64,000 nucleotides of DNA from an uncultured Planctomycetales bacterium. Lineage in GTDB: Bacteria; Omnitrophota; Gorgyraeia; Zapsychrales; JAHFFX01. Each line of letters opens with the position of its first letter. Position 1 is the first letter of the stretch. Positions 3,001-59,092 of the stretch are shown in pieces. The notes under the pieces are model-generated. The model was given only the letters and a program-made list of their open reading frames with translations, did no database searches and was not told the DNA's origin. The position numbers were made by a program, and so were the translations under genes. Where the stretch lies: assembly GCA_964612665.1 (NCBI GenBank), contig CAZTCI010000003.1, positions 969 through 64,968 of the forward strand, given 5' to 3'.

Positions 3001-6000
3001 ATGTCCAAGTCCGCCCAATTCACACCGGTATTTGTTAAAACAGTCAAGTCATTCCAATTAATTCCAGCGTTGCTTAAAATCGTCATGTCATACCAGTTAA
3101 TTCCCGTTGTCGTTAAAGTTCCAATATCACTCCAATTAATACCCGTGACACTTAAGGCGCTCAAATCATTCCAATTCACTCCAGCATCACTTAAGATATC
3201 AACGTCAGCCCAGTTTAGACCTGCTGTCGTCATTTCATTAATGTTGCTCCAATTGACACCGATATTTGATAAAACACCTAAATCACTCCAGTTGATTCCA
3301 GTTGTGCTAAGAGAAGACCAATCAGCCCAGTTGATTCCGGCATCGCTTAAAATATCCAGGTCACTCCAGTTGATTCCAGCGTCGGAAATAATATCCAGAT
3401 CCGTCCAATTGATCCCGGCATCACTTAAGATATCCAGATCAGCCCAATTAATTCCAGCATCGCTTAGAATGTCCAAGTCCGCCCAATTCACACCGGCGTC
3501 ACTTAAAATATCGACATCCGACCAATTAATTCCCGCCGTTGATAACGCCCCGAAATCATTCCAATTAACACCCGAAGCACTTAAAACGCCGACATCTGTC
3601 CAGTTGATTCCGGATGTGCTCATCTCATCGATGTTCGACCAATTAACGCCCGTCGCTGATAAAACCGTTAAATCATTCCAGTTGACGCCGGTCGTACTCA
3701 AAACCGTCAAATCAGACCAATTGACACCCGCATCGCTTAAAATATCAAGATCAGCCCAATTAATGCCAGCGTCAGAAAGAATATCTAAATCCGCCCAGTT
3801 GACACCCGTATTACTTAAGACATTAATATCATTCCAATTGATACCAGCGTCAGAAAGAATATCTAAATCCGCCCAGTTCACGCCCGCATCACTTAAGATA
3901 TCGATATCAACCCAGTTGATTCCCGCGTCAGACAAAATATCCAAATCAGACCAATTCACGCCAGCGCTGCTCATTACATTAATATCTGACCAATTCAGTC
4001 CAACGGTGCTAAATACCGTTAGGTCCGCCCAGTTCACACCTGAATCACTTAATATATCAACATCCGCCCAATTGATGCCGGCAACGGTCATTTCGTTGAT
4101 GTTCGTCCAGTTAACGCCGACATTGGACATGACGGTCAAATCACTCCAATTAATACTGGAACTGCTCAACACCGTCAGATCCGTCCAATTTACACCTGCA
4201 TCACTTAAAATATCCATATCCAACCAATTAATACCAGCGTCGGAAAGGATATCCAAGTCCGCCCAATTCACACCTGCATCACTCAAAATATCCAAGTCCG
4301 CCCAGTTAATGCCGGCATCGCTTAAAACATCCATGTCCGCCCAATTCACACCTGCGTCACTCAATACATCGAGATCTGACCAATTGATTCCAGAAGTTGA
4401 CAAAGCACCGATATCAGCCCAATTAACACCCGTTGCGCTAATGACATCAATATCCATCCAGTTGATTCCGGATGTTGTCAAATCATTAAGACTTGACCAA
4501 TTGACGCCCGTCGTAGTTAGCACCGATAAATCATTCCAGTTAACACCGGTGTCGCTCATCACATCAATGTCGAGCCAGTTCACGCCCGCGTCACTCAAGA
4601 TATCAATATCAGCCCAATTAATTCCCGCATCAGAAAGAATATCCAAGTCTGCCCAATTCACGCCTGCGTTACTTAAAACAGTGAAATCATTCCAATTAAT
4701 TCCGGCATCACTTAAGATATCGAGATCCACCCAGTTGACACCAGCATTGCTTAGCGTATTAATATCGGCCCAATTAACTCCGGCATCAGAAAGAATATCC
4801 AAGTCCGCCCAATTCACGCCCGCATCACTTAAAATATCCATGTCCGTCCAGTTAATGCCAGCGGTCGTTAAAGCGCCAACATCGGCCCAGTTAACGCCGC
4901 TTGTTGCGATAACATTAATGTCGGTCCAGTTAATTCCTGTCGTCGATAAAGCACCAATATCGCTCCAGTTCACACCCGCATCACTTAAAATATCTAAGTC
5001 AGCCCAATTGATTCCAGCGTCGGATAAAACATCGAGATCCGCCCAATTCACGCCTGCATTACTTAAGACATTCATGTCCGTCCAGTTAATCCCGGCATCC
5101 GAAAGGATATCTAAATCAGCCCAATTGACGCCTGCGTCACTTAAAACGTCGATATCAAGCCAATTAATTCCAGCATCGCTTAAAATATCTAAATCGCTCC
5201 AATTAATTCCAGCATCGCTTAAAATATCCAAATCACTCCAATTGACACCAGACGTTGTCAAAGCGCCGACATCATTCCAATTAATACCAGCATCGCTGAG
5301 GATATCAACGTCTGACCAATTGATGCCTGAAGCTGTCATATCATTGATATTTGTCCAGTTGACACCAATTGTTGACATCACATTCATGTCTGACCAGTTG
5401 ATCCCCGCCGTGGTTAGTGTATCCACATCCAACCAATTAACGCCTGCGTCAGTCATGATATCTAGATCCGCCCAATTGATTCCCGCCGTTCCCAACGTAT
5501 TAAAATCAGTCCAATTAATTCCCGCATCACTTAAAGTGTCCAAGTCCGTCCAGTTAATGCCATCAGTACTGAGAATGTCGACATCCGTCCAGTTGATCCC
5601 ACTTAAAGTCATCACGGCCATATCATTCCAGTTAAGTCCGGCAACCGACATAACCGTTAAGTCACCCCAGTTGACACCCGCGTTAGAAAGTGTGGCCAAA
5701 TCATCCCAATTAATAGTTGAATCCCAGTTGACACCCGCCCCACTCATATAGGCAATGTCATACCAATTAACACCAGCGGTACTTAAAAATTGCAAATTGT
5801 CCCAGTTAATGTTGGCATCGCTTAAAATATCGAGATCACTCCAGTTGACGCCTGCATCACTCAAAATATCAAGGTCTGCCCAATTGACACCCGCGTCGCT
5901 TAAGATATCAACATCGGCCCAATTAACACCGGCATCACTCATCACATCAATATCCAGCCAATTTATTCCCGACGTCGATAAACTAAAAAGATCTGTCCAG

Positions 6001-17060: not shown

Positions 17061-17135
17061 ATAAAAAATGCACGCCGGGCGCTTGAGCTGTTTCGCCCGA
17101 ACTTTTACGCCCGGCGAAACAGCTCAAGCGCCCCC
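17061..17135 (-). terminator. rho-independent terminator after the 17229..17609 gene
   Basis: A ~22-bp GC-rich inverted repeat (cgggcgcttgagctgtttcgcc / ggcgaaacagctcaagcgcccg), followed on the minus strand by a TTTTTTAT run. Confidence 0.6.
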
Positions 17136-27270: not shown

Positions 27271-27418
27271 TAGAATTTATCTAGAAGTCATCTCATAAAT
27301 GGTATTGAGCGGGCAACGGGTGGCACGGCGAGCCGATTGGGGGAGGATCCACGCCGGGCGGAGGGGCCACAAGCGGTTTGCCGTGACAGGACCCGCTGCT
27401 TCGACTATTTATAAGATA
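27271..27418 (+). repeat. GC-rich structured MITE-like element, copy 1 (~148 nt)
   Basis: ~90% identical to 58217..58364. Short terminal inverted repeats (CTAGAA..TTCTAG; ATAAAT..ATTTAT). Internal long-range pairing GCGGG..GCACGGC / GCCGTG..CCCGC. ~65% GC against a ~43% GC background. Confidence 0.7.
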
Positions 27419-27434
27419 TATTCTACCTTTCCGT

Positions 27435-31946: not shown

Positions 31947-31981
31947 ATCTTAAATTTTAGAATTAAGAGTGTTATTAAAAT

Positions 31982-32087
31982 CTTATTAAACGCGAATTTT
32001 CACGAATTACACACGAATCTCGCGAATACTCCTAAGTTGATTCGCGGCCATTCGTGTGTAATTCGCGTTAATTCGCGTTTAATAAGG
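31982..32087. repeat. REP-like palindromic element, 'acacacgaat' family, copy A
   Basis: Nested inverted repeats (ttattaaacgcgaatt...aattcgcgtttaataag; cacgaattacacacgaat / attcgtgtgtaattcg) in the ftsW-murD intergenic region. Confidence 0.7.
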
Positions 32088-32112
32088 TTTTCAAACTCTT
32101 TTCAAATCCTTT

Positions 32113-43858: not shown

Positions 43859-44195
43859 TGTTAATTTCCTCCAGCGTTGTTTCGATACGCGCGCCATACT
43901 CAATCGATTTATCAAAAATAAACTGAAACTCCGGCGTGTAGCGCATGCGGATGCGTTCACCGATTAATTTCCGGATAAACCCGCGGGCGTTGTCCAACGC
44001 TTCCTGAGCTTTTTTGACCTGGACGTTTGTTCCAAGAACACTGAAATAAACTTTCGAATGCTGCAAATCTTTCGACACTTCCACGTGCGTGATTGTCACA
44101 AATTCTAGACGGGGATCTTTCATTTCCATCAAAACAATATTGCCGATTTCCCGTTTTATACTTTGATTTACCTTTTCAATTCTTCCCATGACCAA
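43827..44195 (-). CDS. rbfA: ribosome-binding factor A
   Basis: RbfA family, 122 aa. Confidence 0.85.
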   Translation of the reverse strand: MVMGRIEKVNQSIKREIGNIVLMEMKDPRLEFVTITHVEVSKDLQHSKVYFSVLGTNVQVKKAQEALDNARGFIRKLIGERIRMRYTPEFQFIFDKSIEYGARIETTLEEINNELRKNTKNN

Positions 44196-45615
44196 CCTCT
44201 TTTCTTTTTATGACCTGCCATTGTTGAGAAGCGGCTTTCAATTCATCTTGTTTTCCATGAAGGAGCCCGTCTAATTTTTGATAAAGAACTTGTTTTAAAA
44301 TTTCGCCTGTATATTTTCCGGATTCAATGCCGATTAGTTTTAGATCATGTCCGTTAATTTCTAATGCGGCCGATTGATAACGTTCAAAATAATCTTTGAT
44401 ATATTTTTTTGTTGTTGCGCTTACAGTAGTCGCGGCAAAAAAAACAATCGCCTCGGTGCTTAATGGATGTAGCTCAGCGTAAACTTCATACGGCCGCCTC
44501 TTTTTTTTGTTTAGAAATTCATGGATTGACGGCAAAACAGCGACGGTTAGGACTTTTGCAGAATCCGTCGTCCGAGAATGAAAACTCTTCAGCAAACGAG
44601 TCAAATCCGACAACGGTATTTTCTCAGCAAGCGCCATGAAATAAACGAGCCAACGGTTTATGCTCTCGGGACTATTTATTGATTTCTGAAAAAGAACTTC
44701 TATCTTTTCCATCTGTTTAACAGCTAAAAGTGCTTTGGAGGAAGGAATATTCCAAAAAAAATTAAACGCCTTTAAATTGTTTAAACGCTTAATCGACTTA
44801 CTTGGTTTTGGCTCATCAAAGATTTTACGAAACTCTTCAAAATAACGCGGCGGCTTTAAATGCAAAATCACTTTTTTCTTAAGCGCACGCCTGAATAGGC
44901 CCAAAGTCTTGGGTTCAATTTTAAAATCCAAACGCTGTTCGAAACGAACAGCGCGCAGGATTCTCGTCGGATCATCAATAAAACTCTTTTCATGCAGAAC
45001 GCGAACTTTTTTTTCCTTAAGATCTTGAAAACCATTATACAAATCAACCAGCTCGCCAAACGTCTTTCTATTAATTTTAATCGCCATCGCGTTAATTGTA
45101 AAATCCCGACGGAATAAATCATTCTTGATGGAACCAAACGCCACAACCGGCAATGCCCCGCTGTGCGGATACGTTTCCTTGCGGGCCGTCGCAAAGTCGA
45201 TGCGCCGCCCGCTTTTCAATATCACCGTTGCCGTCTTAAATTGAGGATAACGCGTCATTATCACTTGTTTTCTTTGCGCAAAATCTTCCGCAAAACCCAA
45301 CGCATCTTCTTCAACGACAATATCCACATCCAGATTCTTTTGCAAACTTTTATCAGGAACATTACGAACCAGCGGGTTCTGCCGCGGTGATCCGTTCGTG
45401 GGCCCATCCGCCTGGTGTGGATCCTCCCACTCTCTCCTCACCGCGTCACCCGCTGTCGACGAATTTATATTTATGTGCTGAGTTTTATTTAACAAAAGAT
45501 CGCGCACAAACCCGCCGACGACATAAGCCGCCGTTGAGCGCTTATCAGCCAGCCAGCCGATTTCTCTTAAGATCTTCTCTAAATCTTTATCTAACGACGC
45601 TAATAAATTTTTCAT
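44176..45615 (-). CDS. cca: CCA-adding / poly(A) polymerase-family tRNA nucleotidyltransferase, with an in-frame repeat-element insertion
   Basis: Pol-beta-type head (GGFVRDLLL...DVDIVVE). A ~45-aa GC-rich insertion falls between these two motifs and corresponds to copy 3 of the MITE-like element. Confidence 0.75.
   Translation of the reverse strand: MKNLLASLDKDLEKILREIGWLADKRSTAAYVVGGFVRDLLLNKTQHININSSTAGDAVRREWEDPHQADGPTNGSPRQNPLVRNVPDKSLQKNLDVDIVVEEDALGFAEDFAQRKQVIMTRYPQFKTATVILKSGRRIDFATARKETYPHSGALPVVAFGSIKNDLFRRDFTINAMAIKINRKTFGELVDLYNGFQDLKEKKVRVLHEKSFIDDPTRILRAVRFEQRLDFKIEPKTLGLFRRALKKKVILHLKPPRYFEEFRKIFDEPKPSKSIKRLNNLKAFNFFWNIPSSKALLAVKQMEKIEVLFQKSINSPESINRWLVYFMALAEKIPLSDLTRLLKSFHSRTTDSAKVLTVAVLPSIHEFLNKKKRRPYEVYAELHPLSTEAIVFFAATTVSATTKKYIKDYFERYQSAALEINGHDLKLIGIESGKYTGEILKQVLYQKLDGLLHGKQDELKAASQQWQVIKRKEVGHGKN
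45365..45476 (-). repeat. MITE-like element copy 3, diverged, in-frame inside the cca-family CDS
   Basis: The reverse complement aligns with the copy 1/2 core (gtgggaggatccacaccaggcggatgggcccacgaacgg versus gtgggaggatccacactgggcggaggggcccacaagcgg, plus flanks). The host ORF stays open. Confidence 0.65.
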
Positions 45616-46514: not shown

Positions 46515-49070
<2,556 letters not shown>

Positions 49071-49074
49071 TCAG

Positions 49075-49145
49075 AACGCGAATTTTCGCAAATTGCACAC
49101 GAATATTCGCGAAAATTCGTGTGCAATTCGCGAAAATTCGCGTTA
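49075..49145. repeat. REP-like palindromic element, 'acacacgaat' family, copy B
   Basis: Near-perfect palindrome ttgcacacgaatattcgcgaaaattcgtgtgcaa between ligA and acyP. Confidence 0.7.
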
Positions 49146-49147
49146 AC

Positions 49148-49426
49148 CTAAGTTACAATCTCAAAATCCCGAAAAACCCCCAGCGAAGGCACCCAGTCAA
49201 TTTTCTCATCCCGAATATAACCTTCATAACGTTTTTTTAAATTGACCTGCAGAGATTGAATGTCCTCTTTGGCCCCTTCCACTTCAATCTCAACCTGGCC
49301 GTCGGCTAAATTCCTAACCCATCCGACGAGTTTCAACTCCCGCGCGTAGCGCTGTGTTGTATACCGAAACCCGACGCCTTGAACAGCGCCGGAGTAGAAT
49401 ATGTGGGCGTGGGTGATAGGAGACAT
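49148..49426 (-). CDS. acyP: acylphosphatase
   Basis: VQGVGFR and GWVRN motifs, 92 aa. Confidence 0.85.
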
Positions 49427-50520: not shown

Positions 50521-50603
50521 GCGTATAGCGGGTAGCGGGTAGTGAAATTTTATAAATACTAAACACCTATCCGCTATGTACTTTCCGCTACCTAACTGAT
50601 CCA
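50521..50603. repeat. palindromic element 'tagcggtcagcgg / ccgctatccgctgcc' family, copy a
   Basis: gcgggtagcgggtag ... ctatccgctatg..ccgctacc inverted repeats. Related to copies at 51967-52029, 53625-53850 and 55085-55275. Confidence 0.6.
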
Positions 50604-51966: not shown

Positions 51967-52029
51967 GTGGATAGCGGTCAGCGGTTAATGGAATTTATAA
52001 AACACTATCCGCTATGCGCTATCCGCTGC
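51967..52029. repeat. palindromic element, 'ccgctatcc' family, copy b
   Basis: tggatagcggtcagcggttaatgg ... ctatccgctatgcgctatccgctgcc. Confidence 0.6.
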
Positions 52030-52034
52030 CTTTA

Positions 52035-53624: not shown

Positions 53625-53850
53625 AAAAAACGGAGAACAGATGTCAGAATTTCAGCAGATAGCTGGCGATTAGCAGTCAGCGGTTAGTGAAGACTGTTAA
53701 AAATTGATAATTAACGCGAATTCTCACGAATTACACACGAATATTTGTGTGCAATTTGCGTTTATTCGGTTCAAATGTTGTTATTCAACAGTTCTCATTA
53801 GTTAAAAATACTAAACACTATCTGCTCTACGCTAGCCGTTACCTTTAGAC
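53625..53850. repeat. composite repeat: 'ccgctatcc'-family arms with a nested 'acacacgaat' REP (copy c and REP C)
   Basis: Left arm cagcagatagctggcgattagcagtcagcggttagtg. Central cgcgaattctcacgaattacacacgaatatttgtgtgcaatttgcg. Right arm actaaacactatctgctctacgctagccgttacc. ~85% identical to 55085-55275. Confidence 0.65.
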
Positions 53851-55084: not shown

Positions 55085-55275
55085 AACGGAAAACAGAGGT
55101 CAGATGTTAGAATTTCAGCAGATAGCGATTAGCGGTCAGTTAAGACTGTTTAAAATTGCTTAACGCGAATTCTCACGAATTACACACGAATATTCGCGAA
55201 TATTTGTGTGCAATTCGCGTTTATTTGCGTTCAAATTATTATTAACAGCGCTCTACACACTATCCGCTGCTTTCA
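55085..55275. repeat. composite repeat (copy d and REP D), direct repeat of 53625-53850
   Basis: aaaacggaaaacagaggtcagatgttagaatttcagcagatagcgattagcggtcag ... cgcgaattctcacgaattacacacgaatattcgcgaatatttgtgtgcaattcgcg ... ctctacacactatccgctgc. Confidence 0.65.
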
Positions 55276-58216: not shown

Positions 58217-58364
58217 CTAGAAGTCATCTCCTAAATGGCATTGAGCGGGCAGCGGGTGGCACGGCGAGCCGATTGTGGGAGGATCCACACTGGGCGGAGG
58301 GGCCCACAAGCGGTTTGCCGTGACAGGACCCGCTGTCTTCGGCTATTTATGCGATACGTTCTAG
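58217..58364 (+). repeat. GC-rich structured MITE-like element, copy 2
   Basis: ~90% identical to 27271..27418, with the same TIRs and internal pairing. Confidence 0.7.
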
Positions 58365-58367
58365 AAT

Positions 58368-58430
58368 GAAAACAAAAAGCGCCGGGCCCAGGCCTGGCAA
58401 CCACGCAGCGCCGACAGGCCTGGGCCCGCG
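58368..58430 (-). terminator. rho-independent terminator downstream of ribE
   Basis: 14-bp GC stem gggcccaggcctg / caggcctgggccc, followed on the minus strand by CTTTTTGTTTT. Confidence 0.6.
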
Positions 58431-58445
58431 GTCATTTATCGTCGG

Positions 58446-58490
58446 TTAATTCGCGAATATCCGCGTGCAATCCGCGACCATTCGCGTTCA
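58446..58490. repeat. REP-like element, 'acacacgaat' family, degenerate copy E
   Basis: aattcgcgaatatccgcgtgcaatccgcgaccattcgcg. Confidence 0.4.
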
Positions 58491-58498
58491 TAGAAGTT

Positions 58499-59092
58499 TT
58501 AACGCCGCCCCAAAACATACTTCGCCAAAATATCCGTCTCAATATTCACCGCGTCATTAATTTTCTTTAAACCGAGCGTTGTGACTTTAAGCGTAAACGG
58601 AATTAAATAAACTGAAAACCAGGACGCCGTCACAGTGCCGACCGTTAGGCTGACACCATCTAAAGTTATTGAACCTTTGGGCACTAAAAAACGCTTCAAC
58701 TGTTTATCGCAATTTATCCGAAATTCAACAAAATTCGGCCGCTTAAAAATATTCTTTATGACACCAACACCATCCACATGCCCGGAGACAAAATGACCGC
58801 CGAACCGGCTGTTTGCTTTCAACGCGCGCTCAAAATTCACCATCGAGCCTTTAGCTAAATCTTTTAGCGTCGTTTTCAAAATCGTTTCCTGCATCGCTTC
58901 AAAAATAAATCGATCCGGCCGTACTAACTGCGTTGCCGTCAAACAAATACCGTTGACCGCAATGCTATCTCCTTTTTTTGTTCCCTTGAAAATAGCGCCG
59001 CAGCGAACGGTCAATTGCAAAAGATTCGCCAATTGTTTTACGCTTTGGACTTTTCCCTGCGCTTCAATGATCCCGGTGAACATAGCCTTCAA
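58499..59092 (-). CDS. ribE: riboflavin synthase alpha subunit
   Basis: Two lumazine-binding repeats (MFTGII... / SGHVDGVG). Confidence 0.85.
   Translation of the reverse strand: MKAMFTGIIEAQGKVQSVKQLANLLQLTVRCGAIFKGTKKGDSIAVNGICLTATQLVRPDRFIFEAMQETILKTTLKDLAKGSMVNFERALKANSRFGGHFVSGHVDGVGVIKNIFKRPNFVEFRINCDKQLKRFLVPKGSITLDGVSLTVGTVTASWFSVYLIPFTLKVTTLGLKKINDAVNIETDILAKYVLGRR

Follow-up and report, generated by a model that had tools for sequence, protein, structure and literature searches.

Does the cca-family gene of this Omnitrophota bacterium carry a palindromic repeat within its open reading frame, and, if so, does the repeat behave like the Rickettsia palindromic elements (RPEs)? The question arose from a 64,000-nt stretch of DNA (the window). 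The original prediction was that the reverse complement of 45365-45476 is a third, diverged copy of the GC-rich element at 27271/58217, alike over about 110 nt at roughly 75% identity. This copy was said to encode an extra loop of about 45 residues, rich in Gly, Pro and Arg, between the GGxVRD and DxD motifs, and to be RPE-like in behaviour, suggesting an active or formerly active MITE able to create peptide insertions in essential genes. The observation is confirmed, with corrections of detail. The RPE-like interpretation is supported and applies beyond this window, with two qualifications concerning the relationship of the three copies and the term MITE. The features discussed below are as follows.

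45340-45483, minus strand: in-frame 144-nt (48-codon) insertion in cca, encoding TQHININSSTAGDAVRREWEDPHQADGPTNGSPRQNPLVRNVPDKSLQ.
45370-45455, minus strand: core hairpin of copy C (86 nt), comprising P1 CAGCGGGTG / ACCCGCTG, a variable stem, a tandem-GA internal loop and a closing stem GTGGG/CCCAC.
45400-45428, minus strand: apex of copy C, GGGAGGATCCACACCAGGCGGATGGGCCC, which differs from the family consensus at two positions, giving H-Q-A-D-G-P instead of H-R-A-E-G-P.
44176-45615, minus strand: host gene, a class II CCA-adding tRNA nucleotidyltransferase of 479 aa, with GGFVRD at residues 34-39 and DVD at 96-98.
27281-27428, plus strand: copy A, a full 148-nt palindromic element with termini CTAGAAGTCATCTCATAAATGG...CTATTTATAAGATATATTCTAC and apex at about 27341-27368, intergenic between murC-like and ddl-like genes, both on the minus strand.
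58217-58365, plus strand: copy B, a full 149-nt palindromic element with apex 58277-58305, intergenic between co-directional minus-strand genes, about 190 nt upstream of a fabF-like gene on the minus strand.

We first examined the nucleotide similarity, since its collapse on rigorous alignment had been named in advance as grounds for rejection. A repeat search returned the inverted matches 45370-45487 with 58218-58335 (118 nt, 73%) and 45401-45492 with 27277-27368 (92 nt, 71%), while copies A and B match each other at 93–97% over their core. MAFFT aligned all three copies with the core in register. A covariance model built from 62 non-redundant family members scored the cca copy at 64.2 bits (E = 7.8e-17, 45380-45448, minus strand), copy A at 59 bits and copy B at 73 bits. 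An exhaustive, filter-free search of the window with this model found only these three copies, the next best hit scoring 18 bits and being a generic hairpin. Thus, the similarity is real and far beyond chance. Over the full element, however, C is 65% identical to A and to B (which are 89% identical to each other) and reaches 73% only over the core, which contains the family-wide conserved apex. The coordinates 45365-45476 cover only this core, and the full insert is 45340-45483.

Next, we investigated the host gene. Pfam identifies the PolyA_pol head domain (PF01743), split into two stretches with profile position 11 resuming at residue 89, and the RNA-binding domain (PF12627). The closest proteins among 5.8 billion are Omnitrophota CCA tRNA nucleotidyltransferases of about 420–430 aa, at most 44% identical. 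The gene order ligA-orf-xerC/D-cca-rbfA-DHH is the same as around cca in two other Omnitrophota, and this is therefore the orthologous housekeeping gene. The prediction had proposed alignment with orthologs as a test of lineage specificity. In an alignment with 22 Omnitrophota homologs, a block of exactly 48 residues (TQHININ...DKSLQ), lying between LLNK, just after GGFVRD, and KNLDVD, has no counterpart in any of them. Every column that is invariant in this alignment is retained, including G34, G35, V37, R38, D39, D96 and D98. Against the solved Thermotoga maritima enzyme 3H37 (phmmer, 3.7e-64), query residues 4-42 align to chain residues 11-49 and query 93-459 to chain 52-417, such that 50 query residues stand where the solved structure has two. 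The insert ends three residues before the first catalytic Asp. Its GC content is 0.54 versus 0.40 for the rest of the gene, and the peptide is polar and rich in Asn, Pro, Gln, Ser, Asp and Arg, with only 3 Gly. No closely related genome lacks the insertion, the nearest Cca homolog being 44% identical, and the insertion is therefore undated and without a demonstrated empty site. The surface-loop placement, also to be checked with AlphaFold, came out in favour. The AlphaFold2 model has a mean pLDDT of 83, with residues 45-94 below 50 and without secondary structure, whereas helix 35-41 and the DxD strand 96-101 are above 90. The best structural matches of the model are CCA-adding enzymes (Foldseek to 3h38, 2e-25).

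Copies A and B have termini CTAGAAGTCATCTC.TAAATGG and its inverted partner, and fold as one long hairpin on either strand, with z-scores from -4.2 (A) to -6.5 (B, -77.9 kcal/mol). Copy C folds at -50.9 kcal/mol (z = -3.8). A and B carry stop codons in all six frames, while C has none in the cca frame. We then asked whether C derives from A or B. With the shared apex excluded, the arms of C are 65–69% identical to A/B and 69–73% identical to copies in unrelated genomes. Thus, C is no closer to A/B than to copies in other genomes, and is better described as an old or independently acquired member of the same family than as a diverged copy of the 27271/58217 element, which is not demonstrable.

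To explore the wider family, we scanned 185,579 species-representative genomes for the 18-base apex pattern GGGAGGATCCACNNNNGGCGGA, which returned at least 115 loci. About 13 of these, in high-GC Actinobacteria and similar genomes, lack the rest of the motif, close to the roughly 17 matches expected by chance for 18 specified bases in 596 Gb. The other loci, about 100 in about 34 assemblies, all continue with GGGGCCC and sit at the tip of a long hairpin. By record title they come from 21 assemblies labelled Omnitrophota, 7 labelled Planctomycetia or Planctomycetales, 3 labelled Deltaproteobacteria, 1 Bdellovibrionota chromosome and 2 unclassified bacteria, the non-Omnitrophota labels not having been verified. 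Many genomes hold several copies, with lineage-specific bursts of near-identical copies, and very few decayed copies were found in the loci searched. A scan of viral contigs for the apex gave 0 hits. A protein search with apex-encoded peptides returned only four short hypothetical proteins, which are ORFs mis-called over intergenic copies.

The 29-nt apex, GGGAGGATCCACACCGGGCGGAGGGGCCC, is almost invariant, with 22 invariant and 6 nearly invariant alignment columns spanning it and the closing base pairs. The flanking arms are only 37% identical to one another, yet 89% of in-register positions are Watson-Crick pairs. On a MAFFT alignment not fitted to any structure, 85.9% of cells are paired, versus 53% in shuffles and 38–49% when the partner is slid. 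The covariation score is 0.767 versus 0.19, reached by 0 of 500 shuffles, and both sides change in 17 of 20 pairs. G.U pairs outnumber A.C mismatches 37 to 18 on the strand we call sense (p = 0.014), which hints at an RNA or single-strand constraint that is not yet understood, although related copies are not independent and this is only weak evidence that the fold of one strand matters more. Two architectures recur. Type 1 has a G-U-A/G-U-A internal loop below a 5-bp closing stem, while type 2, which includes the window copies, has a tandem G.A loop and a conserved basal helix GCGGGTG...CAGGNCCCGC. Variants at two sampled loci (L030, L090) carry an extra nested hairpin at one fixed site in the apex. 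The outer termini differ by lineage, with elements of about 195 nt and ATACGGCTTTAAC... ends in JBDRFA01, the bare hairpin of about 90 nt in PPR_0476, and CTAGAAG... ends in the window and in the genome OFTM38 (TAGAAGTTATCCC).

Relative to co-directional neighbouring genes, the orientation of the element is the same in 18 cases and opposite in 19. All-versus-all BLASTP of 560 ORFs from 98 loci, covering about 8 kb around each copy and so not excluding a distant partner, found only generic families recurring, with no transposase or other recurrent neighbouring gene. A search of the window against Rfam 15 at the gathering threshold found only two tRNAs, and E-value searches around copy B and of six loci gave only noise, with no ribozyme or intron family matching. 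These features fit a dispersed, non-autonomous DNA element better than a strand-specific cis-regulatory RNA. Full-text searches for the apex sequence and for Omnitrophota repeats or MITEs found nothing relevant in the literature searched, which does not exclude a description elsewhere, and the family is apparently undescribed.

A search for further in-frame copies had likewise been suggested beforehand. Of about 114 sampled copies, nine (about 8%) lie inside long open frames that Pfam confirms as genuine proteins with domains on both sides of the insert. Besides cca these are, in other genomes, CobQ (in the linker between the CbiA and GATase_3 domains), a RimO/MiaB-like enzyme (in the linker between the UPF0004 and radical SAM domains), HypF (inside the second Kae1-like subdomain), a second CCA-type enzyme (inside its HD domain), a CcsA-type cytochrome c assembly protein, YfhO, a double GT2 glycosyltransferase and a class II aldolase-SCP2 fusion. 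By Pfam coordinates these inserts lie in interdomain linkers or inside domains, and only the cca case was modelled. Two copies are in the sense orientation and seven are antisense, and the apex is read as EDPH(R/Q)A(E/D)GP, GPLRP(V/A)WILP, APPPGVDPP or GPSARCGSS. In two genomes, OFTM38 and NC_groundwater_963, three of the four sampled copies are in frame in genes. None of the 55 type-1 copies is in a gene, against 9 of 49 others (Fisher p = 7e-4), although genome sampling is uneven and this needs confirmation. Elements have on average 1.95 of 6 frames open, and stop codons are only mildly depleted (7.0 against 8.2 in arm-preserving shuffles). Roughly one intragenic hit in nine would stay open by chance, so occasional in-frame survival needs no special adaptation. 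A different palindrome, with a 22-bp stem and no shared apex, forms a private in-frame insert elsewhere in the cca of another Omnitrophota.

We propose, with a probability of roughly 0.78, that 45340-45483 is a copy of a non-autonomous, hairpin-forming repeat element that inserted into the housekeeping cca gene, and that it survived because it is a multiple of three bases long and has no stop codon in the frame of the gene. In this view it is most likely translated as a 48-residue disordered loop between the GGxVRD helix and the DxD catalytic strand of an enzyme that is otherwise intact and under purifying selection. Each unit of the family is a hairpin of about 90–195 nt with a near-invariant 29-nt apex, a small G.A-type internal loop and a long stem that is free to change as long as it stays paired. 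Our analysis directly demonstrates the insertion and its exact extent, the preservation of the ORF and of the invariant host residues, the predicted disorder of the insert, the existence of the family with its conserved apex and covarying stems, the recurrence of in-frame copies and the lack of orientation bias. By contrast, we infer from the open frame, without having observed it, that the insert is translated, and we infer that the element is or was mobile, that it spreads or is maintained through a folded single strand (DNA or RNA), and that a trans-acting protein recognises the apex. Insertion would be roughly random, with copies in genes persisting only where the frame stays open and the site tolerates a loop, such as linkers and surface loops. 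The enzyme, the intermediate and any target preference were not identified.

The strongest alternative, which we consider unlikely as a replacement for this view but which does not exclude it, is that the element is mainly a functional structured nucleic acid, a new non-coding RNA or single-stranded DNA motif whose invariant apex binds a conserved cellular factor, its spread being secondary. The frozen apex on strongly covarying stems, the conserved internal loops, the nested-hairpin variants, the excess of G.U pairs and the scarcity of decayed copies agree with it, and the extreme conservation of the apex across genomes is more than a selfish element strictly needs and could point to a host-level function. 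Against it stand the even orientation, the copies inside ORFs in both orientations and four reading frames, the lack of an Rfam match and the many copies per genome with lineage-specific bursts of near-identical copies. A related and more far-reaching possibility, tentative at best, is that the hairpin is a new kind of mobile or functional module recognised at the loop, not at the ends, by a conserved protein, and acting as folded single-stranded DNA or RNA. This would explain why stems and termini vary across phyla while the tip is frozen, and would make Omnitrophota a second, independent and much broader arena for protein remodelling by palindromic DNA of the RPE type.

Excision of the insert from the mRNA, or its bypass by the ribosome, is very unlikely. 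The stable hairpin in the mRNA is compatible with it, and bypassing of GC-rich hairpin inserts occurs in phage T4 gene 60 and with the yeast mitochondrial 'byp' elements, though this was not tested here. However, all nine intragenic copies keep the frame open and are stop-free, which removal would not require, although the detection method could only find open copies and this test is weak. A split-gene test found no convincing case of a gene interrupted by a frame-breaking copy, the only candidate being coaC|coaB at locus L043. Equally improbable is a cca gene inactivated by the insertion, with another enzyme supplying CCA. The insert does lie only three residues before the catalytic DxD, but the ORF is fully open over 479 aa, the invariant columns are retained, the flanks fold confidently, synteny with rbfA and xerC/D is preserved, and the diverged state of the copy implies long persistence without ORF decay. 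We also dropped an integron attC site (there are no R''/R' core sites at the stem base), a k-turn (there is no 3-nt bulge) and stems copied from the host target (in cca both arms lie inside the 48 extra codons). Resemblances of the apex to the CsrA-binding consensus, a DnaA box and a Shine-Dalgarno-like sequence were noted by eye only and are not relied on.

In-frame colonisation of essential genes by palindromic selfish DNA has been treated largely as a Rickettsia curiosity, and a 2024 MITE review only speculates that it may happen elsewhere (PMC10969869). Here it is seen in an uncultivated phylum, in at least nine proteins, including one site three residues from an active centre, which, together with the unrelated palindrome in another Omnitrophota cca, suggests a general route by which small genomes acquire new surface loops and linkers. 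The frozen apex also gives a sharply defined target for finding the protein that recognises it, and a specific sequence tag for tracking these elements in metagenomes.

The closest known system is the RPEs (Ogata et al. 2000, 2002, as summarised in PMC10969869), palindromic repeats of about 100–150 bp dispersed in many copies, a sizeable fraction of which is inserted in frame in unrelated housekeeping genes with the ORF kept open and inserts compatible with the protein fold. The elements described here share the size (144–149 nt in the window), the dispersal (three copies in the window and more than 100 in other genomes), the in-frame insertion into unrelated genes and, for cca, the placement in a predicted loop. 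No RPE consensus sequences were compared and no sequence relationship was shown, and since the host is a free-living or epibiotic member of the Omnitrophota rather than an obligate intracellular alphaproteobacterium, the family is an analogue, not a member. Its conserved part is an apex on sequence-variable stems, not a family-wide consensus that encodes a conserved peptide, its inserts are read in at least four different frames and orientations, and the in-ORF fraction is lower overall.

Bacterial MITEs with intragenic copies (ERIC, QMITE1 of Coxiella, Correia/NEMIS; PMC10969869, PMC5896051) are similarly small, non-autonomous and hairpin-forming, mostly intergenic with occasional translational fusions, and have terminal inverted repeats, as here within a lineage (CTAGAAG...CTTCTAG in the window and in OFTM38), although the whole element is one long palindrome and these repeats are not separable from the stem. 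MITE is nevertheless only a loose fit. The flanks show no consistent direct repeat, and because the terminal CTAG is itself a palindrome and the TA or ATT/AAT flanks may be extensions of the stem, the matter of a target-site duplication is left undecided. No cognate IS was found among the loci examined, the termini differ between lineages while the centre is invariant, the reverse of a classic MITE, and stem covariation indicates selection on folding rather than on transposase-binding ends. REP/REPIN elements mobilised by RAYT (TnpA-REP) transposases (PMC3733652) are likewise extragenic palindromes thought to act as folded single-stranded DNA recognised by a trans-acting enzyme encoded elsewhere in the genome, but no RAYT-like gene was seen next to any sampled copy. 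REPs are 20–40 nt long, with a conserved GTAG or CGTC head and conserved stems, whereas the hairpins here are 90–195 nt with a conserved loop.

We also noticed other repeats within the window. A very long array of 39-nt (13-codon) tandem repeats, comprising more than 100 units at 60-80% identity, occupies window positions 1-~6000 and probably lies within a giant repeat protein that runs off the window start. The repeat search further identified a second, AT-rich palindromic repeat family (AACGCGAATT..CACACGAAT..ATTCGCG) with at least five copies, one of which lies about 85 nt downstream of copy B of the GC-rich element, and a repeat of about 50 nt (..AAACACTATCCGCTATGCGCTATCCGCTGCC..) that recurs every 1.4-1.8 kb and may be a shared upstream signal of a gene series. 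Two GC-rich, near-perfect hairpins do not belong to the element family; the first of these lies directly downstream of copy B and is probably a terminator-like structure. The window positions of these repeats are:

31977-32104, 49061-49155, 53688-53792, 55151-55251 and 58449-58508, AT-rich palindromic family
50547-50596, 51985-52034, 53798-53847 and 55226-55275, repeat of about 50 nt
58381-58430 and 17077-17133, GC-rich hairpins outside the element family

Next, we noted variant copies and arrangements of the element among the sampled loci from other genomes (L numbers). Copies at L030 (2967-3068) and L090 (3887-3951) carry an extra nested hairpin (CCCCGCC...GGCGGGG), inserted at a fixed point in the apex between GGCGGA and GGGCCC. 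A truncated copy at L103 (1187-1229) lacks its left arm and supplies the last residues (..REDPHRAEGPW) and the stop codon of the upstream ORF. At L043 (~3870-4080), the element lies between ORFs that encode the CoaC-like and CoaB-like halves of what is usually one fused coaBC gene, and may have split the gene. Clusters of two or three copies within a few hundred bases, some with shared flanking repeats, were observed at L011 (5388-6199), L045 (2737-3015) and L066 (3382-3521).

We compared the element types across all loci for their occurrence within genes. None of 55 type-1 copies is inside a gene, against 9 of 49 type-2 or other copies (Fisher p = 7e-4), although genome sampling is uneven. 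Type 1 carries a TAG just after the apex in one frame.

Finally, we noted inserts in homologous proteins. The cca gene of another Omnitrophota (L117, 1501-2838; protein P0057) carries a different in-frame palindromic insert, which has a 22-bp stem and a GC content of 0.53 versus 0.42 for the gene. This insert shares no apex with the element and sits at another position in the protein. Other homologs in the protein alignment (P0022, P0027, P0049 and P0085) also have private inserts.
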